A DNA stretch of 60,962 nucleotides, filler included. It is 5 parts of 5 records of this genome, joined end to end, with 100 filler letters (N's around TTAATTAATTAA, not from the genome) between each part and the next. Parts side by side here need not be neighbours in the genome. Positions count along the whole stretch, not along the records: positions 30,177 to 38,402 come from DRR723986_6896; 4 more parts are not named here. The stretch is one strand, 5' to 3'. The notes beneath the pieces were generated by a model that saw only the letters and a list, made by a program, of their open reading frames with translations, was not told where the DNA came from and did no database searches. The position numbers and the translations under genes were made by a program. This document shows positions 20,740 through 55,566 of this stretch, piece after piece (the stretch's first letter is position 1; every line of letters begins with the position of its first letter).

Positions 20740-20839
20740 NNNNNNNNNNNNNNNNNNNNNNNNNNNNNNNNNNNNNNNNNNNNTTAATTAATTAANNNNN
20801 NNNNNNNNNNNNNNNNNNNNNNNNNNNNNNNNNNNNNNN
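20740..20839. other. Artificial contig spacer
   Basis: 44 N + TTAATTAATTAA (stops in all six frames) + 44 N. Confidence 0.99.
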
Positions 20840-30076: not shown

Positions 30077-30176
30077 NNNNNNNNNNNNNNNNNNNNNNNN
30101 NNNNNNNNNNNNNNNNNNNNTTAATTAATTAANNNNNNNNNNNNNNNNNNNNNNNNNNNNNNNNNNNNNNNNNNNN
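30077..30176. other. Artificial contig spacer
   Basis: N-run with central TTAATTAATTAA. Confidence 0.99.
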
Positions 30177-30177
30177 G

Positions 30178-30336
30178 GCCTTCAACTTCGCGGTGATCCA
30201 GAACATCACCGGCCGATCCACCGGTTTCATCGCCAAGGCGACCTGGCCATTCCTGCTGATCATGATTGTCTTCGTGATCCTGCTGGCGGTGTTCCCGCAG
30301 GTCGTGCTGATCATGCCGGAACTGCTGCTCGGCTGA
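30178..30336 (+). CDS. dctM: C-terminal fragment of a TRAP transporter large permease (DctM-like); not in the ORF track
   Basis: Manual translation AFNFAVIQNITGRSTGFIAKATWPFLLIMIVFVILLAVFPQVVLIMPELLLG* matches the typical DctM C-terminus. Confidence 0.75.
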   Translation, partial: AFNFAVIQNITGRSTGFIAKATWPFLLIMIVFVILLAVFPQVVLIMPELLLG

Positions 30337-30377
30337 CCTCCCGCCCGTGAGGGCGCATCACGGCGACCGTTCTCCTC

Positions 30378-30412
30378 ACGCGCCAGGGCCTCACCGCCCT
30401 GGCGCGTTTTTT
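30378..30412 (+). terminator. Rho-independent terminator after dctM
   Basis: ACGCGCCAGGGC-CTCACC-GCCCTGGCGCGT followed by TTTTT. Confidence 0.85.
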
Positions 30413-30509: not shown

Positions 30510-31283
30510 TCATTTGTTGCCGGTGAGAATGACCTCGTCTCCGACGCGCTTGGCCGTGCGCAGCCCGCCCGGCACCTGCAAGGTCGGCAATAGCTCGATC
30601 AGTCCGATGTTGACGTATTGCGGCGTCGAGATGGCGTAGTCGACCGCATCCGCGATGTCGGAGGTCTGTGGCATCTCGAAACCGTCGAAGTACTTCGCCT
30701 TGGCTTCCTCGGGAGAGATCCCTTCCACCGTGGCAAAGATGTCGGTCTCGACCCGGCCGGGGCTGATCTCGGTCACGCGCACGCGACGGCCAAAGGCATC
30801 GACCCGCAACTGGCGCGACAGGGTATGTATCGCGGCCTTGGTGGCGTGGTAGGCGATATGCCCGCCAAATTCATAATGCCCGGCCATGGAGCCGATGTTG
30901 ATGATGTGCCCGCTGTCGCGCGCCATCATCCCGGGCAGGATCAGCCGGGCAAGGTGCAGCGCGGCGCGCAGGTTCACGTCGATCTGCTCGTCGATGTCGA
31001 AGGCGCTCGATTGCAGCAGGCTGCCCGGCCGCGAGACCCCGGCGCAGTTCACCAGCACGTCGACTTCGAGACCGCCCAGCAGGGTTTCGAGCGCCTTGGT
31101 ATCGGTGACGTCGACGGCGTGGGGCAGGGCGCCGGTACGGGCGGCCAGCGCCTCGAGTTTTCCCGCCGACCGGGCGATGGCGTGAACGGTCAGTCCCTTG
31201 TCGCTCAGGCGTTCGACGATGGCCTCGCCCATGCCGCCGGAGGCGCCGGTGACGAGGGCGGTCTTGTAGTCGGAGAATGGCAT
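30510..31283 (-). CDS. SDR oxidoreductase (YdfG-like)
   Basis: TGASGGMG, NCAG, YHATK (YxxxK). Start MPFSDYK with a GGA RBS; the track's longer N-terminus overlaps pxpA. Confidence 0.9.
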   Translation of the reverse strand: MPFSDYKTALVTGASGGMGEAIVERLSDKGLTVHAIARSAGKLEALAARTGALPHAVDVTDTKALETLLGGLEVDVLVNCAGVSRPGSLLQSSAFDIDEQIDVNLRAALHLARLILPGMMARDSGHIINIGSMAGHYEFGGHIAYHATKAAIHTLSRQLRVDAFGRRVRVTEISPGRVETDIFATVEGISPEEAKAKYFDGFEMPQTSDIADAVDYAISTPQYVNIGLIELLPTLQVPGGLRTAKRVGDEVILTGNK

Positions 31284-31311
31284 CGGTGTGGAGTCCTTCC
31301 TGTTTTTCGGC

Positions 31312-32076
31312 TCAAGGCTGCTGTGACAGCGGCACGATCCGGCCCTCGCGGGCGGTGATTTCATGGCGCAGCCGGCTGGCAAGCTCGACCGCTCCGGCGG
31401 TGTCGGAATGCACGAGGATCGACTGCACTGGCATGTCGATCTCGCCGCCGTCGAGGGTTTCGATCCTCTCGTCCTGAATGACCCGCAGAACGCGTTCGAC
31501 CACTGCCTGCGGGTCGTGGATGACTGCGCCGGGTTGCCCACGCGGCGCCAGCTGGCCATTGGCCAGATAGGCGCGATCGGCGAGGAACAGGCGGACCACC
31601 CGGGCCCCGCGCGCCGTCGCTGCGCGTTCCAGCTCGGAGTGGGGCAGCGTCAGGTAGGCAATGTCGGGATCGAAATCGCTGACCGCGCGCACCAGTGCCG
31701 CGGCGATCCCGGCGTCCGCGCTGGCGAGGTTCCCCAGTGCGCCATGAGGATTCACATGGCTGATCCGGTGGCCGATCCTCCGCGCGATCCCGTCGAGCGC
31801 GCCAAGCTGATAGAGCACATGCGCCTCGAGTTCCGGGATCGGCATGTCTATGCGCCGCCGCCCGAATCCCATTCGGTCGGGAAAGGACACATGCGCGCCG
31901 AGATCGACGCCGTGGTCCCTGGCGAGGCGGACGGTTTCCTCCATGATCACCGGGTCGCCCGCGTGATAGCCGCAGGCGACGTTGGCCGAACTGACCTGCG
32001 CCATGAGCGCCGCGTCATCGGCGATGCGGTAGGGGCCGAAGCCTTCGCCCATGTCGGAGTTGATGTCGATGATCAT
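31312..32076 (-). CDS. pxpA: LamB/YcsF family protein (5-oxoprolinase subunit A-like)
   Basis: IDINSDMGEGFG, SANVACGYHAGDP, GAHVSFPDRMGFGRR, PHGALGN, ADRAY, LVHSDT. Confidence 0.92.
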   Translation of the reverse strand: MIIDINSDMGEGFGPYRIADDAALMAQVSSANVACGYHAGDPVIMEETVRLARDHGVDLGAHVSFPDRMGFGRRRIDMPIPELEAHVLYQLGALDGIARRIGHRISHVNPHGALGNLASADAGIAAALVRAVSDFDPDIAYLTLPHSELERAATARGARVVRLFLADRAYLANGQLAPRGQPGAVIHDPQAVVERVLRVIQDERIETLDGGEIDMPVQSILVHSDTAGAVELASRLRHEITAREGRIVPLSQQP

Positions 32077-32465
32077 GCGTCGGGCTCCAAGTCAAAGAGG
32101 ACATCGGCATAGCCGACGAGCTGTCCGGGCGTCGCGTGGCAGACGATCGGGCGCCCGGCACAGGGCGATAGGACAGGCTGCAACAGCCCGTCGTCGCAAA
32201 CGAAGCCGAGGATCTCGCCCTGTTGCACGGCTTGGCCCTCGGTCAGGGGCGGCAGACCGTCATCCTCACCGCGCGGGCGGAAATGGCCGAGGCCGGGGCT
32301 TTTCGCGTGCTGGCGCTGCGGTGCTGCGACGGGTTTCGGGGCGGTCGTGACCGTTGTGGACCGCGTAAGGGTCAGATCGATGCCGGGGCCGGTCACGCGC
32401 AGCGTGGTGGTGCCGGTTTCGGCCATCACCGCGCTCAACTGCTGAACAAAGGCAAGATCGGTCAT
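32073..32465 (-). CDS. BCCP-like protein lacking the biotinylated lysine
   Basis: AccB-like layout (KSPGLGHF...VQQGEILGFV...PVLSPCAG...VGYADVLFDL), with CDDGLL where EAMKM would be. Confidence 0.75.
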   Translation of the reverse strand: MTDLAFVQQLSAVMAETGTTTLRVTGPGIDLTLTRSTTVTTAPKPVAAPQRQHAKSPGLGHFRPRGEDDGLPPLTEGQAVQQGEILGFVCDDGLLQPVLSPCAGRPIVCHATPGQLVGYADVLFDLEPDA

Positions 32466-32467
32466 CG

Positions 32468-33430
32468 CTACCAGCTCCTTGTCAGGGTTCGATGGCGCGC
32501 CAGCCGCGCCGCAAGGTCGTCCAGGTCGCGACGCAGATCGGCCTCTGCCTGCGCCGCACCCGCAAGGTCGGTCCGCTCGAAACGCAGGCTGTCACCCGGG
32601 CGGGCCTGGCCCAGCTTCCAAAGGTCGGCTTCGATCACGCAGGCGATCTTGGGGTAGCCGCCCATGGTGGCGCTGTCGGCCAGCTGGATGATCGGCTGCC
32701 CGCCCGCGGGGACCTGTACGATGCCCGGAACGATCCCGTGCGAGCGCATCTCGGTGGTGCTGTCACGGGTCAGGGTCGGGCCGGACAGGCGATAGCCCTG
32801 CCGGTTGCTCTGCGCCGTGACCTGCCAGGGCTGGCCCCAGAAATCCGCCTGGGCCTGTGCGTCGAATTCGTCATGTTCGCCTGATGGCAGGGCATACAGC
32901 ACGATCTCGCCGCCTGCGTTTTTCAGAGGCGGCGGAGGAAGGACGACCGGCGCGGTCGTGGCACGCGGCGCGGCGGGTTTGAGCAGGTCGCCGGGGCGCA
33001 GGGCACGGCCTTCGTGGCCGCCAAAGCTCTCGCGCAGCTGCGTGGCGCGGGACGCCAGAACCTCGGGCACGTCGATCCCGCCGGGAAGCGCGAGGTAGAT
33101 GCGACCGCCTTGCGTGATCGGGCCGAATCCCAGCAGGTCGCCCGCGTTGGCCACCCCGGCAAAGTACCGCGGCAGCGGTCGCCCGGCGAGGGTTGCGTCG
33201 GCATCGGCACCGGCCAGGGCAAAGGCGCAGTTTTCAGTGAACCGCAGTTGCGCCGGGCAGAGCGGGATTTCCAGCGTCGCCGCCGACTCGGGATTGCCCA
33301 GAAGAAGGTTGGCGGTGCGATGCGCCAGAGCGTCCATCGCACCCGCACGGCCCAGCCCCTGAGCCCAGTAGCCGTCACGCCCAAGGTCCTGGACCGTTGC
33401 CAGCGGCGGGATGAATTCGACCGCGATCAT
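32468..33430 (-). CDS. pxpC: Biotin-dependent carboxyltransferase family / PxpC (AHS2-like)
   Basis: TVQDLGR, GAMD..A...ANLLLGN, SNRQGYRL, GIVQVP.GGQPII.LAD..TMGGYPKIA. Start MIAVEF overlaps the pxpB stop (ATGA). Confidence 0.9.
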   Translation of the reverse strand: MIAVEFIPPLATVQDLGRDGYWAQGLGRAGAMDALAHRTANLLLGNPESAATLEIPLCPAQLRFTENCAFALAGADADATLAGRPLPRYFAGVANAGDLLGFGPITQGGRIYLALPGGIDVPEVLASRATQLRESFGGHEGRALRPGDLLKPAAPRATTAPVVLPPPPLKNAGGEIVLYALPSGEHDEFDAQAQADFWGQPWQVTAQSNRQGYRLSGPTLTRDSTTEMRSHGIVPGIVQVPAGGQPIIQLADSATMGGYPKIACVIEADLWKLGQARPGDSLRFERTDLAGAAQAEADLRRDLDDLAARLARHRTLTRSW

Positions 33431-34084
33431 GCCAGCACCTCCACCGGGTTGAAGCGGATGCGGTCGCCCGGAACCAGCAAGGCGGGGGGCACGCGGAATG
33501 GGTCGAAGAAATCGACCGCGCCCGCGCCGATGGTGTTCCAGCCGCTCGGCCCGGCCGAGGCGGAAATGCCGGTCTGCAAACCGGCGATCGACAGCGAACC
33601 CTTGGGCAGATCGGTCAGCGGCACCTTGCGGCGCGGCGTCGCAAGCCTCGGGTCGAGGCCGCCGAGGTAGCAGTATCCCGCATGGCTGCCCACCGCATAG
33701 ACCGTGTAGTCCGGCGCGGCATGGGCCGCGACAAGGGCGTCGATCGTCAGCCCGGTCAGAGCGGCGGCCTCGGCCAGGTGCGGGCCGCCCGCGCCGCCAT
33801 AGATGATGTCGATGGTCAGAAGCCTGCCGTCCATCTCGCGCCGGATGCCGCTGGTCCAGAGGCGTTGGAGGTCGCGGTGCAGCGTCTCGGGATCGCTCGG
33901 GACGTGATCGAGCAACAGCGTCAGGTTGGTCATGCCGGGCACGGCCTCGCGCACGCCGGGCCACTGAGCCGCCTCATGGGCCAGTGCCCAAAAGCGTTGC
34001 TGCGATGGCAGGTCGAAGGGGCAGTCTGCCTCGAACAGGATCGCGCGGGCGCCGATCATCGACAGGCGGGTGGCGTGGGTAAGG

Positions 34085-34092
<8 letters not shown>
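33427..34092 (-). CDS. pxpB: PxpB (AHS1/KipI-like)
   Basis: EAVPGMTNLTL, YGGAGGPHL, GYCYLGGLDPRLATPRR, GPSGWNTIG, GDRIRF. Confidence 0.9.
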
Positions 34093-35435
<1,343 letters not shown>

Positions 35436-35443
<8 letters not shown>

Positions 35444-35861
35444 CGGCCATCCTCATCAGCAGGGCACCGGCTTCGACCGGGTCGCCGTTGTCCAGAGCAA
35501 TCTCCGTCACGCGACCCGATCGGGGGGCGGGGATCGGGGTCATCATCTTCATCGCCTCGATCAGGCACAGGGTCTGACCCGCCTCGACCCGCGCGCCGAC
35601 AGTCACAAACGGGGCGGCTTCCGGCGCGGGTGTCAGATGGCAAATCCCTGCAAGAGGCGCTGCGACCTCGGTGCCTGCGGTTCGTGCCGGGGCGACCGGC
35701 TTCGGGGCGGGCTCGGCGACATCGGTTGGTGTCGCTTCGCGCGGATCGCCCTGGCGCGAGATCTCGATGGTCAGACCATCGAGGGCAAGCCGCAGTTCGG
35801 ACAGGCCAGAGGAGGCGGCCACGCGCATTGCGGCGATCACCGGGATCGGATCGAAGGTCAT
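35436..35861 (-). CDS. accB: Biotin carboxyl carrier protein (AccB-like)
   Basis: Pro/Ala linker and intact EAMKM biotinylation motif. Start may be 35927. Confidence 0.9.
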
Positions 35862-36108
35862 CTGGTCAGCGTCTCGGCTGCGCGGCGCACCGGGCGAGGT
35901 GTCTGAGCGCGAAGGGTTTTCGGTCATGACGCAACCGTAACACCGCGGTTTTCAGATGAGGTCAGAGGCGATTTGAATGACCCGGGTTCGGCATCCCGGG
36001 GCCGGCCCATCGCGAAACCCGATCATGTCAGATCGACACAGTCTTATGCCGTAAGCAGGGGGCTTTCTAACCTGCCGCCGACATCAAGGCGCAGGAAGGA
36101 TCCCCGAT

Positions 36109-36795
36109 ATGCCCCACATCATCACGAAATTCGACCGCGCCACCCCCGAGGATGTCGCCGCGCTTGCGAAATTTCCCTCTGCGACCATCCACGAGGCGCA
36201 GGGGCGTCTTGGCGCGCTGTCTTCGCGCATCAAGCCGATCGACCGCGCCATGAAGCTCTGTGGTCCGGCCTTCACTGTTATGAGCGCGCCGCGTGACAAC
36301 CTGATGCTGCAACTGGCAATCCACTACGCCCAGGCCGGTGACGTGATTGTCGTGTCGGCAGGCGCCTACGAGGAAGCGGGCAGCTTTGGCGACGTGCTGG
36401 GCAATGCCTGCAAGGCGAAGGGGATTGCGGGCGTCGTCACAGATACCGGCGTGCGTGACACGCTGGCGCTGATCGACCTGGGCCTGCCGGTGTTTTCGCT
36501 GTCGGTCTGCATCACCGGCACGGTCAAGGAAACGCTGGGCTACACCAACCGGCCCATCGTCGTCGGCGGGCAGGAGATCCGCCCCGGCGACATCATCAAC
36601 GGCGACGCCGATGGCCTCGTCGTGGTGCGCAAGGAGGATGCGGCGCGCGTGGCCGGTCTCAGCGCTGCACGCGAGGCGGTCGAGGCCGACCTGATCGAGA
36701 AATACAAGGCGGGCGGCACCGTGATCGACCTGTGCAACCTCGCCCCCGTGTTGCAGGCCAAGGGCCTGACGACAGATCTGACCACCGACCTGTGA
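36109..36795 (+). CDS. RraA-family HMG/CHA aldolase-like protein
   Basis: ATIHEAQGR.GAL, CGPAFTV, DNLMLQ, FGDVL, GVRD, PGDII.GDADGLVVV; AGGAAGGA RBS. Confidence 0.85.
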   Translation: MPHIITKFDRATPEDVAALAKFPSATIHEAQGRLGALSSRIKPIDRAMKLCGPAFTVMSAPRDNLMLQLAIHYAQAGDVIVVSAGAYEEAGSFGDVLGNACKAKGIAGVVTDTGVRDTLALIDLGLPVFSLSVCITGTVKETLGYTNRPIVVGGQEIRPGDIINGDADGLVVVRKEDAARVAGLSAAREAVEADLIEKYKAGGTVIDLCNLAPVLQAKGLTTDLTTDL

Positions 36796-36806
36796 GGGAT
36801 GGCACG

Positions 36807-38015
36807 ATGACCCCGATCAAGCTTGCCCGCCGCGTTACGGACATCCGCGTTTCGCCCTCCACCGCCGCCGCCCAGAAGGCGCGCGACCTCAAGGCGCAAG
36901 GCCGCGACATCGTCGATCTGACGGTGGGCGAACCCGATTTCGACACGCCGCAACCGATCAAGGAGGCGGCGATGGCCGCGATCCGGTCGGGTGTCACGAA
37001 ATACACTCCTGTCAATGGCTTGCCGGAACTGCGCGAGGCGATCCGCCACGATTACCGCACCCGTCTCGGTCTGGAGGTCGCAATGGATGAGATCTGCGTC
37101 GGCGGCGGAGCCAAGCAGATCCTCTTCCTCGCGCTCATGGCGACGGTGGAGGCTGGCGACGAAGTCATCATCCCAGCGCCCTACTGGGTGTCCTACCCCG
37201 ACATGGTGATCGCCCAAGGCGGCACCCCGGTGATCGTGCCTTGCCCGGAAAGCCAGCGCTTCAAGCTGACGCCAGAGGCGCTGGAGGCCGCGATCACGCC
37301 GGCAACCCGCTGGCTGGTGCTGAATTCGCCGTCGAACCCGACCGGCGTCGCCTACACGCCCGACGAGTTGCGCGCGCTCGGCACGGTGCTGCTGCGGCAC
37401 CCGCAGGTTCTGGTCCTGTGCGACGAGATCTACGATCGCATCTGGTACGCGGATTTCGACGTCAAGAGCATCGTCTCGGTCGTGCCAGAGCTGAAGGACC
37501 GCGCGCTGGTGGTCAACGGCGTGTCGAAATCCTACGCCATGACCGGCTGGCGCATCGGCTATGCCTCGGGGCCAAAACCGCTGATCGACGCGATCAACAA
37601 GCTGCAGTCGCAATCCTCCTCCTGTCCGTCCTCGGTCAGCCAGGTCGCAGCGGCCTTTGCGCTGACCTCGGACCAGTCGGCGGTGGCAGAGACGGTGCGC
37701 ATCTACCAGGCCCGCCGCGGCCGCGCCTGGGCGCTGCTGAATGCCGTCGAAGGACTGAGCTGTCTCAGGCCCGACGGAGCCTTCTACCTGTTCCCCAACT
37801 GCTCTGGCGTGATCGGCAAGACCACTCCCGAAGGCAAGGTGATCGAAACCGACCTCGATTTCGTCCTCTACCTGATGGACTCCGCCGGCGTGGTCTCGAT
37901 CCAGGGAGAGGCCTACGGCCTTGGGCCGCATTTCCGGATATCGACCGCGACGTCGATGGATCTGCTGGAAAGCGCCTGCAGCCGGATCGACGGCGCTTGC
38001 CGGGTGTTGCGCTGA
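36807..38015 (+). CDS. Class I PLP aminotransferase (aspartate transaminase-like)
   Basis: GEPDFDTP, PAPYWVSY, NSPSNPTG, DEIY, SKSYAMTGWRIG, GAFY, FRIS. Confidence 0.93.
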   Translation: MTPIKLARRVTDIRVSPSTAAAQKARDLKAQGRDIVDLTVGEPDFDTPQPIKEAAMAAIRSGVTKYTPVNGLPELREAIRHDYRTRLGLEVAMDEICVGGGAKQILFLALMATVEAGDEVIIPAPYWVSYPDMVIAQGGTPVIVPCPESQRFKLTPEALEAAITPATRWLVLNSPSNPTGVAYTPDELRALGTVLLRHPQVLVLCDEIYDRIWYADFDVKSIVSVVPELKDRALVVNGVSKSYAMTGWRIGYASGPKPLIDAINKLQSQSSSCPSSVSQVAAAFALTSDQSAVAETVRIYQARRGRAWALLNAVEGLSCLRPDGAFYLFPNCSGVIGKTTPEGKVIETDLDFVLYLMDSAGVVSIQGEAYGLGPHFRISTATSMDLLESACSRIDGACRVLR

Positions 38016-38124: not shown

Positions 38125-38402
38125 ACGCCTATGGCCGAACCGACGCCGTTCAGATGCCAACTCTTTCATCTTGGCCCGCAGTTCCGTGTCGGCAGGGCGC
38201 ATCGACGTGCGCCGACACACGCGCGGAGCAATCCCGGCAAACGCGCAGGCGCGTCGTCGATTGTAGCCCTTGGTCTTCATCGCCCAGTTCACAGCATTTC
38301 TTTTCGAGCAGGGCTTCGGAAGTTTTTCCAAGCATCTCTTTCAACGTCGCTGCATCCATCATCTGCTCGGCCAGCATCTTCTTCAGATTGGCATTCTCGC
38401 TT
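38125..38402 (-). mobile_element. Degenerate IS3-family (IS407-like) transposase fragment: end of orfA and start of orfB
   Basis: ENANLKKMLAEQMMDAATLKEMLGK, then in another frame RRRACAFAGI...LRAKMKELASERRRFGHRR. Similarity stops before the integrase core; the other end is cut by the spacer. Confidence 0.8.
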
Positions 38403-38502
38403 NNNNNNNNNNNNNNNNNNNNNNNNNNNNNNNNNNNNNNNNNNNNTTAATTAATTAANNNNNNNNNNNNNNNNNNNNNNNNNNNNNNNNNNNNNNNNNN
38501 NN
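38403..38502. other. Artificial contig spacer
   Basis: N-run with central TTAATTAATTAA. Confidence 0.99.
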
Positions 38503-55466: not shown

Positions 55467-55566
55467 NNNNNNNNNNNNNNNNNNNNNNNNNNNNNNNNNN
55501 NNNNNNNNNNTTAATTAATTAANNNNNNNNNNNNNNNNNNNNNNNNNNNNNNNNNNNNNNNNNNNN
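55467..55566. other. Artificial contig spacer
   Basis: N-run with central TTAATTAATTAA. Confidence 0.99.

Follow-up and report, generated by a model that had tools for sequence, protein, structure and literature searches.

Two described enzyme systems come closest to the gene cluster analyzed here, which comprises nine genes on one contig of a 60,962-base stretch of DNA (the window). The first is PxpABC (YbgJ, YbgK and YbgL in Escherichia coli; KipI, KipA and YcsF in Bacillus subtilis; pxpTABC in Corynebacterium glutamicum), whose subunits belong to the same three families as three of the cluster proteins, whose pxpB-pxpC gene order is the same, and which opens a gamma-lactam at the expense of ATP, as the cluster may do by analogy. 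The second is urea carboxylase or urea amidolyase (K. lactis, PDB 3VA7 and 5I8I), which has an identical domain inventory and whose logic of N-carboxylation followed by hydrolysis the cluster would share. The cluster differs from PxpABC in that a biotin carboxylase (BC), a biotin carboxyl carrier protein (BCCP) and a lysine-less BCCP paralogue (BCCPx) are built in, the gene for the last lying between pxpC and pxpA, whereas the E. coli operon has no biotin genes; in that a short-chain dehydrogenase/reductase (SDR), an aminotransferase and an RraA-family protein accompany it; and in that its PxpC fails the PxpC equivalog model. From urea carboxylase it differs in being split into separate proteins, in having a hydrolase of the LamB/YcsF rather than the amidase-signature type, and in its extra lysine-less carrier. 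With a probability of about 0.55, on the analogy with these systems, we consider the locus to encode a split, biotin-dependent, multi-subunit "lactam amidolyase" together with product-disposal enzymes, which would scavenge a pyroglutamate-type ring compound.

Homologues of KipA and KipI from Mycobacterium smegmatis (MSMEG_0435-0436; PDB 9YX5, 3MML) have two BCCP domains of AccA3 bound in a cryo-EM structure, one with its biotin "positioned to participate in a carboxylation reaction" and the other with its biotin disordered, according to the excerpted text of the report (PMC13012033). The two bound BCCPs match the one biotinylatable and one lysine-less carrier of the present locus; the mycobacterial proteins differ in that they borrow the AccA3 carriers, whereas both carriers are dedicated genes here, in that their similarity in PxpC is distant, and in that the excerpt gives no known substrate for them. 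ATP-driven, bicarbonate-requiring lactam hydrolysis is described for the caprolactamase CapAB and for hydantoinase/oxoprolinase-type lactamases in the portion of PMC8453981 available, which states that lactam hydrolysis can be endergonic and coupled to ATP, that caprolactamase needs both bicarbonate and ATP, with a carboxylated lactim discussed as an intermediate, and that PxpA is the probable metal-dependent lactamase of the Pxp system. CapAB itself belongs to unrelated families (an actin-fold ATPase and a Zn subunit) and uses no biotin. Plant BADC (biotin attachment domain-containing) proteins, as far as the excerpted sources describe them, are BCCP homologues that lack the biotinyl lysine and assemble with BC/BCCP complexes, which BCCPx would resemble; they differ in being negative regulators of plastid acetyl-CoA carboxylase (ACC).

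Pxp genes with a dedicated biotin carboxylase and carrier also occur in a pxpA-pxpB-pxpC-accC-accB architecture, present in Microvirga (two copies), Paracoccus versutus and Pseudomonas serbiensis (loci L086, L087, L088 and L090), where it coexists with the nine-gene type. Its gene order is different and leaves no room for a BCCPx gene between pxpC and accC; the 13-17 kb fetched contain no match to the aspartate-type aminotransferase or RraA and no adjacent SDR, and PxpC identity is 33-41%. We take this architecture to be equivalent to Pseudomonas aeruginosa PA0492-PA0496. Structural papers on urea carboxylase reportedly noted KipA/KipI genes beside BC and BCCP genes. Papers mentioning P. aeruginosa PA0492-PA0495 look like studies of expression or regulation. 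A literature search covering papers apart from their supplements found no assigned function for the nine-gene set or for any Pxp operon with a biotin carboxylase. An earlier sequence-only reading of this DNA knew of no assigned substrate for the combination. Split urea-carboxylase-like/Pxp enzymes are known; what is new is a nine-gene catabolic form with a universally retained pseudo-carrier in three proteobacterial classes.

The window consists of five contigs joined by four spacers of the form N44-TTAATTAATTAA-N44 (20740-20839, 30077-30176, 38403-38502 and 55467-55566). The nine-gene locus lies wholly on the third contig (30177-38402; 8,226 bases; GC 0.668). Because the spacers divide the window into contigs, genes to the left of 30076 or to the right of 38503 are not physical neighbours of the cluster. 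The G+C content of the contigs ranges from 0.544 to 0.668, and this spread may reflect a mixed bin or an island-rich genome. The nine genes are as follows.

30510..31283, minus strand: SDR, last gene of the operon (Pfam adh_short).
31312..32076, minus strand: PxpA, LamB/YcsF family, presumed metal-dependent hydrolase subunit (LamB_YcsF).
32073..32465, minus strand: BCCPx, lysine-less BCCP paralogue of 130 aa (hhalign to the AccB profile; AlphaFold2 model).
32468..33430, minus strand: PxpC-like subunit with carboxyltransferase subdomains A and B, previously called "allophanate hydrolase subunit 2" (CT_A_B).
33427..34092, minus strand: PxpB-like subunit with carboxyltransferase subdomains C and D, previously called "allophanate hydrolase subunit 1" (CT_C_D).
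34085..35443, minus strand: AccC paralogue, dedicated biotin carboxylase (three biotin carboxylase Pfam domains).
35436..35927, minus strand: AccB, dedicated biotin carboxyl carrier with the motif EAMKM (Pfam Biotin_lipoyl).
36109..36795, plus strand: RraA-family class II pyruvate aldolase / oxaloacetate decarboxylase (NF006731).
36807..38015, plus strand: class I (aspartate-type) aminotransferase, cluster-specific (Pfam Aminotran_1_2, NF004769).

Open reading frame (ORF) listing and scans against Pfam and NCBIfam recovered all nine genes where the sequence-only reading had placed them, including the RraA-type aldolase and class I aminotransferase genes that diverge from the operon on the plus strand. 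The tight coupling it described on the minus strand, from accB through accC, pxpB, pxpC, the BCCPx gene and pxpA to the SDR gene, is evident from the coordinates, with neighbouring genes either overlapping (accB/accC by 8 nucleotides (nt), accC/pxpB by 8 nt, pxpB/pxpC by 4 nt, BCCPx gene/pxpA by 4 nt) or separated by 2-28 nt (2 nt from pxpC to the BCCPx gene, 28 nt from pxpA to the SDR gene); rraA and the aminotransferase gene are 11 nt apart. One boundary was revised: the aminotransferase start, previously assigned to a GTG at 36732, was moved to the ATG at 36807 because the family model aligns to residues 1-401 counted from there. The AccB ORF carries a 22-codon N-terminal extension (35861-35927) with no counterpart in its orthologues, and by this comparison the internal ATG at about 35861 is more likely the true start. 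Long opposite-strand ORFs (e.g., 34070-35929, plus strand) have no family support and are taken to be shadows of the high-GC sequence.

The Pxp and carboxylase subunits were identified by family scores. PxpA matches Pfam LamB_YcsF (PF03746) at 6.6e-91 and passes the PxpA subfamily model NF003814 with 327.7 bits against a cut-off of 226, and PxpB matches CT_C_D at 4.9e-55 and passes the PxpB equivalog TIGR00370 (166 bits versus 145.55). PxpC matches CT_A_B at 6.1e-86 and passes the domain-level model TIGR00724 (283.6 bits versus 230.2), and fails the PxpC equivalog NF045499, for which it scores 284.4 bits against a cut-off of 500. Its best solved relative is E. coli YbgK (5DUD, 1.1e-62), with urea carboxylase at only 2e-37 to 3e-37 and the mycobacterial homologue at 3e-37. 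AccC passes the accC equivalog TIGR00514 (642.3 bits versus 626.5). AccB matches Pfam Biotin_lipoyl at 1.1e-18 and fails the BCCP equivalog TIGR00531 (83 bits versus 115), and the E-A-M-K motif is invariant across an alignment of 21 AccB sequences. All domains of urea carboxylase (BC, carboxyltransferase A-D and BCCP), the set to which the earlier reading had likened BC, BCCP and AHS1/AHS2, are therefore detected in the operon as separate proteins; the urea carboxylase equivalog TIGR02712, whose cut-off is 1303.85, fails, with 470, 186 and 38 bits for the parts. Pfam detects an amidase-signature allophanate hydrolase domain in none of the nine proteins of the 8.2-kb contig. The absence of accA, accD and an allophanate hydrolase from the contig, on which the sequence-only reading had remarked, is real and says little for a contig of 8,226 bases. 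Nor does the locus fit the description of PxpABC as a three-gene system without biotin components, accB, accC and the BCCP paralogue being translationally coupled to the pxp genes.

The 130-residue BCCPx protein has no Pfam or NCBIfam match. Over its whole length it can be aligned with AccB from the same clusters, CDDGLL in the window protein taking the place of EAMKMM, as expected from the earlier description of a BCCP without its lysine. Comparison by hhalign of a 41-sequence BCCPx profile with the 21-sequence AccB profile gives 99.4% probability (E 5e-22, 138 columns), and the column of the carrier lysine is a variable residue in the BCCPx profile. The AlphaFold2 model (mean predicted local distance difference test score, pLDDT, 89.8) has as its top fold match the biotinyl domain of E. 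coli BCCP, 1BDO, with a template-modeling (TM) score of 0.85 on the target and a root mean square deviation of 2.0 Å, followed by Arabidopsis BCCP1 and the E. coli BC-BCCP complex. By both profile and fold, BCCPx is a true BCCP homologue that lacks the biotinyl lysine, and it cannot carry biotin.

Among 80 related loci (selected as described below), 79 have a BCCPx orthologue between pxpC and pxpA, while the remaining one, L056, ends just past pxpC, and the motif [AVS]MK[MLVIA] is present in 0 of these 79 orthologues versus 65 of the 68 AccB proteins of the same loci. One orthologue, that of L015 (Flavimaricola marinus), does show a lysine in the carrier column of the alignment (VCQGKLRIP), outside an AMKM context, and is probably not biotinylated. 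When the BCCPx profile was searched against 1.84 billion representative proteins, 92 representatives were found at E <= 1e-30, and the motif is missing in 147 of the best 150. Two of the three motif-bearing exceptions are natural fusions, P0061 (250 aa) and P0096 (281 aa), in which a lysine-less BCCP unit is N-terminal and a genuine BCCP with EAMKM is C-terminal; in the manner of a Rosetta-stone hint, these fusions argue that both carriers work in one complex. A word-index homologue search with BCCPx returned 20 word-sharing candidates, none of which reached a score, reflecting the sensitivity limit of the index and not absence. Translational coupling within a catabolic operon and retention in 79 of 80 loci suggest that BCCPx is a required subunit.

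Conservation of the gene set was assessed by scanning one genome per species with a PxpC alignment, which gave at least 549 relatives, and analyzing the closest 80, so that counts over these loci, chosen by PxpC similarity, describe this PxpC subfamily and not all PxpC genes. The nine window proteins were mapped onto each locus, and 55 of the 80 have at least 7 kb on both sides (well-flanked loci). The following counts are for all loci and for well-flanked loci, respectively.

PxpA: 79/80; 55/55.
BCCPx: 79/80; 55/55.
PxpB: 78/80; 55/55.
SDR: 74/80; 53/55.
Aminotransferase: 69/80; 51/55.
AccB: 68/80; 50/55.
AccC: 65/80; 47/55.
RraA: 59/80; 45/55.
All nine genes: 52/80; 41/55.

The hosts are soil and marine bacteria of the Alpha-, Beta- and Gammaproteobacteria. 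The co-occurrence of aldolase and aminotransferase with the operon in other genomes, a check proposed by the sequence-only reading, is thus upheld, with 45 and 51 of the 55 well-flanked loci, respectively. Of the 69 aminotransferase counterparts, 67 are 47-81% identical to the window protein and two (L051 and L075) are 34-36% identical; the SDR found at the same position in 74 of the 80 loci is 59-85% identical to the window SDR. Searches of plasmids and chromids with blastn found the same gene content in Paracoccus, Bradyrhizobium and Ralstonia, and in Variovorax by DNA match. The aminotransferase gene follows the SDR gene in Paracoccus; in Bradyrhizobium and Ralstonia accB is accompanied by a LysR gene of the nitrogen assimilation control (NAC) type, with the aminotransferase-RraA pair divergent from it, and the SDR gene is followed by a polar amino-acid ATP-binding cassette (ABC) transporter. 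That content is kept while order differs among these three genera argues for selection on the nine-gene set. The nine genes are a conserved functional unit, not a chance neighbourhood, in which the invariant core is PxpB-PxpC-BCCPx-PxpA with the SDR, and AccC, the aminotransferase and RraA are frequent and not obligatory.

In a quick maximum-likelihood tree of 84 cluster-type PxpC rows and nine added paralogues (canonical PxpC of E. coli and Variovorax, the pxpA-pxpB-pxpC-accC-accB type, and urea carboxylase), all 84 fall on one side of a branch with Shimodaira-Hasegawa-like approximate likelihood ratio (SH-aLRT) support of 94 and the nine paralogues on the other. The window PxpC is sister, with support 99, to a clade whose 25 rows come from Rhodobacterales, Labrenzia and Granulosicoccus, and its best identity is 65%; the other large clade comprises Burkholderiales, Hyphomicrobiales and Rhodospirillales. 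Further CT_A_B genes, paralogous to pxpC, are present in all five cluster-bearing genomes checked: in addition to the pxpA-pxpB-pxpC-accC-accB sets mentioned above, Variovorax paradoxus has a canonical pxpB-pxpC-pxpA, Pacificibacter a related Pxp set, and Pseudomonas a fused urea carboxylase. Microvirga sp. VF16 carries a total of four PxpC paralogues. The best accC match (697-745 bits) is likewise elsewhere in each of the five genomes, with the cluster AccC second (641-682 bits), and the AccB/AccC pair of the cluster is hence not that of fatty-acid synthesis there. The presence of further PxpC paralogues and of a better accC elsewhere in five of five genomes indicates that the nine-gene system is an extra, specialized one.

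The accessory enzymes are assigned with differing precision. The window RraA passes NF006731 (209.8 bits versus 179) and fails the stricter TIGR02798 (ligK_PcmE; 186 versus 304.5), and it aligns over its full length with the 4-hydroxy-4-methyl-2-oxoglutarate/4-carboxy-4-hydroxy-2-oxoadipate aldolase of Pseudomonas putida, 3NOJ (E 1.8e-47). In this alignment its R-D pair falls on R123-D124 of the 3NOJ chain, which we take to be the catalytic Arg-Asp pair. RraA is 73-84% identical to that of the window within the Rhodobacterales/Labrenzia/Granulosicoccus clade. The one Ralstonia member scanned belongs to another subfamily (NF004850, 315.8 bits versus 231). Accordingly, the aldolase step of the sequence-only reading stands as plausible for the clade of the window, given the 3NOJ alignment and the R-D pair, and falls as a universal step, RraA being missing within 10 kb from some loci (see below) and of another subfamily elsewhere. 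The aminotransferase matches Pfam Aminotran_1_2 at 1.1e-73 and NF004769 with 671 bits (cut-off 617). The SDR matches adh_short at 2.1e-43, and its best solved relative is 3ASU (2.1e-34), presumably a YdfG-type enzyme.

Transport and regulatory genes near the clusters provide hints about the substrate. A LysR regulator is present in 70 of 83 loci, and the regulator adjacent to the Ralstonia cluster passes the NAC equivalog with 484.6 bits (cut-off 309). Transporters among the same 83 loci include an SBP_bac_3 ABC system in 39-43, a tripartite ATP-independent periplasmic (TRAP) system in 19-21 and a Dpp-type SBP_bac_5 system in 12. Cluster-linked SBP_bac_3 protein resembles glutamine/arginine binders, and the top solved relatives of cluster-linked TRAP binding proteins from Granulosicoccus (L024) and Roseivivax (L013) are DctP6 and DctP7 (2PFZ and 2PFY; E 1e-27 to 1e-31). 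The Bordetella pertussis DctP6 and DctP7 proteins were crystallized with pyroglutamate, according to the excerpted text of PMC3454389 and PMC13274462. Together these hints point to a pyroglutamate-like, amino-acid-like nitrogen source. Of the lactam or amide substrate suggested by the sequence-only reading, a 5-oxoproline-type lactam fits the closeness to YbgK, the DctP6/7 match and the precedent of bicarbonate-dependent lactamases. A substituted 5-oxoproline or a related lactam is favoured over plain 5-oxoproline because another Pxp system is kept in the same genomes and because an SDR, an aminotransferase and usually an RraA protein belong to the cluster; this is a preference, not a result. 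That the substrate is 4-hydroxy- or 4-hydroxy-4-methyl-pyroglutamate is pure inference, as are the sequence of the steps and the part played by the SDR. The substrates considered and set aside were 4-hydroxy- and 4-hydroxy-4-methyl-5-oxoproline, 6-oxopipecolate, the 2-oxoglutaramate lactam, opine lactams and N-carbamoyl amino acids.

In the mechanism that we propose for the lactam amidolyase, by analogy with urea carboxylase and allophanate hydrolase, AccC would use ATP and bicarbonate to carboxylate biotin on AccB, PxpB/PxpC, which correspond to the two halves of the carboxyltransferase domain of urea carboxylase, would transfer the carboxyl to the amide nitrogen in the lactam ring, and PxpA would hydrolyze the activated, imide-like bond of the N-carboxy-lactam. 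The resulting carbamate would lose CO2 to give an amino acid, the net reaction being an ATP-driven opening of a stable lactam. BCCPx would be an architectural subunit, the permanent occupant of a second, biotin-independent BCCP site such as that on the mycobacterial PxpC homologue, a role suggested by the second BCCP with disordered biotin held there; alternatively, it may bridge the biotin carboxylase and the Pxp module. The amino acid would then be transaminated by the cluster aminotransferase, and in most genomes the RraA-type enzyme would act on the 2-oxo acid, by aldol cleavage or decarboxylation, to give pyruvate and a second product. The SDR would at some step oxidize or reduce a hydroxyl or carbonyl group of substrate or product. 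Uptake would be by TRAP transport in the contig of the window and by polar-amino-acid or Dpp-type ABC systems elsewhere, under control of a LysR or NAC-type regulator.

Several observations weigh against this reading, beginning with the selection of loci by PxpC similarity noted above. AccC was not found within 10 kb in 8 of the 55 well-flanked loci, and a few loci have AccB and no AccC. In four Granulosicoccus loci (L021, L022, L024 and L026) PxpB-PxpC-BCCPx-PxpA-SDR is kept, together with TRAP and Dpp transporters, and no AccB, AccC, aspartate-type aminotransferase or RraA was found locally. The absence of AccC or AccB from some loci means that the biotin parts might be supplied in trans or might be dispensable. 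By sequence, the 5-oxoprolinase subunit of E. coli, described as biotin-independent, resembles PxpC more closely than urea carboxylase does, and the excerpted text of PMC8453981 reports, citing other work, that co-purified PxpB/PxpC has an ATPase activity of its own. RraA is only 30-36% identical to that of the window in the Burkholderiales/Hyphomicrobiales/Rhodospirillales clade and was not found within 10 kb in 10 of the 55 well-flanked loci; seven RraA-lacking loci were inspected, and none has a replacement aldolase beside the aminotransferase. The DctP6/7 match is distant, with 6WGM scoring nearly equally for L013. Finally, the data establish gene content, homologies, conservation of the set and loss of the biotinyl lysine, and from them we infer biotin dependence, N-carboxylation, the lactam substrate and every downstream step.

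The neighbours in the seven RraA-lacking loci are porins, an MFS transporter, a hydrolase, dehydrogenases and similar genes, and these loci gave no evidence of non-orthologous displacement of RraA. The Granulosicoccus locus scanned (L024) has a class V aminotransferase gene (TIGR01976-like) and a xylose-isomerase-like TIM-barrel gene upstream of pxpB.

A wider claim would be that Pxp-type lactamases as a class are biotin enzymes that work in the manner of urea amidolyase, their ATP requirement being that of the housekeeping AccBC/AccA3 biotin carboxylase where there is no dedicated copy; the window would then show the most complete form, with an obligatory pseudo-carrier in the second BCCP site, in a hitherto unrecognized catabolic pathway for a substituted pyroglutamate. 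The statement of the sequence-only reading that PxpABC needs no biotin has become less safe, as the biotin of a bound BCCP occupies the active site of a mycobacterial PxpB/PxpC homologue according to the excerpt of PMC13012033. We nevertheless advance this generalization only tentatively and regard it as doubtful.

Equally doubtful is an island for plain L-5-oxoproline, in which the Pxp module with its own BC and carrier would yield glutamate, transamination of oxaloacetate would convert this to 2-oxoglutarate and aspartate, and RraA would act as an oxaloacetate decarboxylase balancing the C4 and C3 pools. The family scores of PxpA and PxpB, the similarity of PxpC to the E. coli 5-oxoprolinase subunit and the TRAP binding proteins nearest to the pyroglutamate-binding DctP6/7 are all consistent with it, and 5-oxoproline is a proven sole carbon and nitrogen source through pxpTABC in C. 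glutamicum, according to the excerpt of PMC13274462. However, another Pxp set, either canonical or of the pxpA-pxpB-pxpC-accC-accB type, is already present in five of five genomes checked, and the PxpC score (284 bits) is far from the equivalog cut-off of 500. Furthermore, no dedicated SDR is required for glutamate, yet among the accessory proteins the SDR is the most conserved (53/55; 59-85% identity), and the aminotransferase would have to share its acceptor with a competing oxaloacetate decarboxylase.

It is improbable that the substrate is instead an acyclic amide or ureide, for example an N-carbamoyl or ureido amino acid or a 2-oxo-acid amide (2-oxosuccinamate, 2-oxoglutaramate), whose terminal nitrogen would be carboxylated like that of urea before hydrolysis by PxpA. 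The domain set equals that of urea carboxylase, NAC-type regulation fits nitrogen scavenging, and the aminotransferase could act first to give a 2-oxo-acid amide. To our knowledge, the only characterized biotin users of this carboxyltransferase fold act on urea and guanidine, acyclic planar amide-type nitrogens, which counts in its favour. Yet PxpC matches YbgK far better than it matches urea carboxylase (1e-62 versus 2e-37), the transport hints favour pyroglutamate-like ligands, and the PxpA/LamB family is linked to lactam use, PxpA being a probable lactamase in the excerpted text of PMC8453981.

Very improbable is a regulatory role in which PxpB/PxpC and BCCPx would sequester biotinylated carriers and tune other carboxylases, as the mycobacterial homologues do on the long-chain acyl-CoA carboxylase. 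Plant BADC proteins, as described in the excerpted sources, offer a precedent of lysine-less BCCP homologues that inhibit ACC, but the module here lies inside a catabolic unit with a transporter, a nitrogen regulator, PxpA, an aminotransferase and a dedicated biotin carboxylase, and a sequestering protein would need neither its own AccC nor a functional AccB. The idea that AccB and AccC are the housekeeping fatty-acid ACC genes beside unrelated pxp genes is extremely improbable, although AccC passes the accC equivalog (642 versus 626.5), because a higher-scoring accC (697-745 bits) refutes it in the five genomes checked, AccB is under the BCCP equivalog cut-off (83 versus 115), the locus has no accA or accD, accC overlaps pxpB by 8 nt, and AccB/AccC travel with pxp in 47-50 of 55 loci.

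Other features of the contig lie at its ends.

30178..30337, plus strand: last 52 codons of a gene for a TRAP large permease (DctM), truncated at the edge of the contig and convergent with the SDR gene.
30378..30407, plus strand: intrinsic-terminator-like hairpin after dctM, with a 12-bp stem of 10 G-C pairs followed by a T run (consensus match only).
30470-30451, minus strand: weaker terminator-like hairpin after the SDR stop (consensus match only).

The 52-residue DctM fragment has a weak Pfam DctM match (E 0.0026, under the cut-off) and is 69-85% identical to the C-terminal 52 residues of the cluster-flanking DctM proteins of 12 listed loci. The right contig end falls inside an 82-residue ORF fragment (38156-38401, minus strand) that has no Pfam match; its assignment as an IS3-type OrfA was dropped for this reason, and the assembly break there may reflect a repeat. 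At other loci, in the alpha and beta clades, a 2-hydroxyacid dehydrogenase resembling glyoxylate/hydroxypyruvate reductases lies within 10 kb in 23 of 83, and a Zn-dependent alcohol dehydrogenase resembling L-idonate 5-dehydrogenase lies within the same distance in 26 of 83; the pair is exemplified by L001 (14288-18347) and L003 (16685-20028). These genes might form a sugar-acid module of their own or connect the cluster with glyoxylate handling.

Bacteria very commonly carry the PxpB/PxpC fold, as the number of relatives retrieved by the scan attests. The operon provides a defined, expressible set of seven proteins with which N-carboxylation by carboxybiotin can be tested. If the substrate were only 5-oxoproline, the finding would be a modest one, a variant of a known salvage enzyme. 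If the lactam amidolyase reading is true, lactams would be a new substrate class for biotin-dependent carboxylases, the 2026 cryo-EM structures of PxpB/PxpC homologues holding biotinylated carriers would be explained, and BCCPx would be the first bacterial example of a required lysine-less BCCP subunit. The locus would then represent a nitrogen-scavenging pathway common to plant-associated Burkholderiales, rhizobia and marine bacteria of the Roseobacter group.

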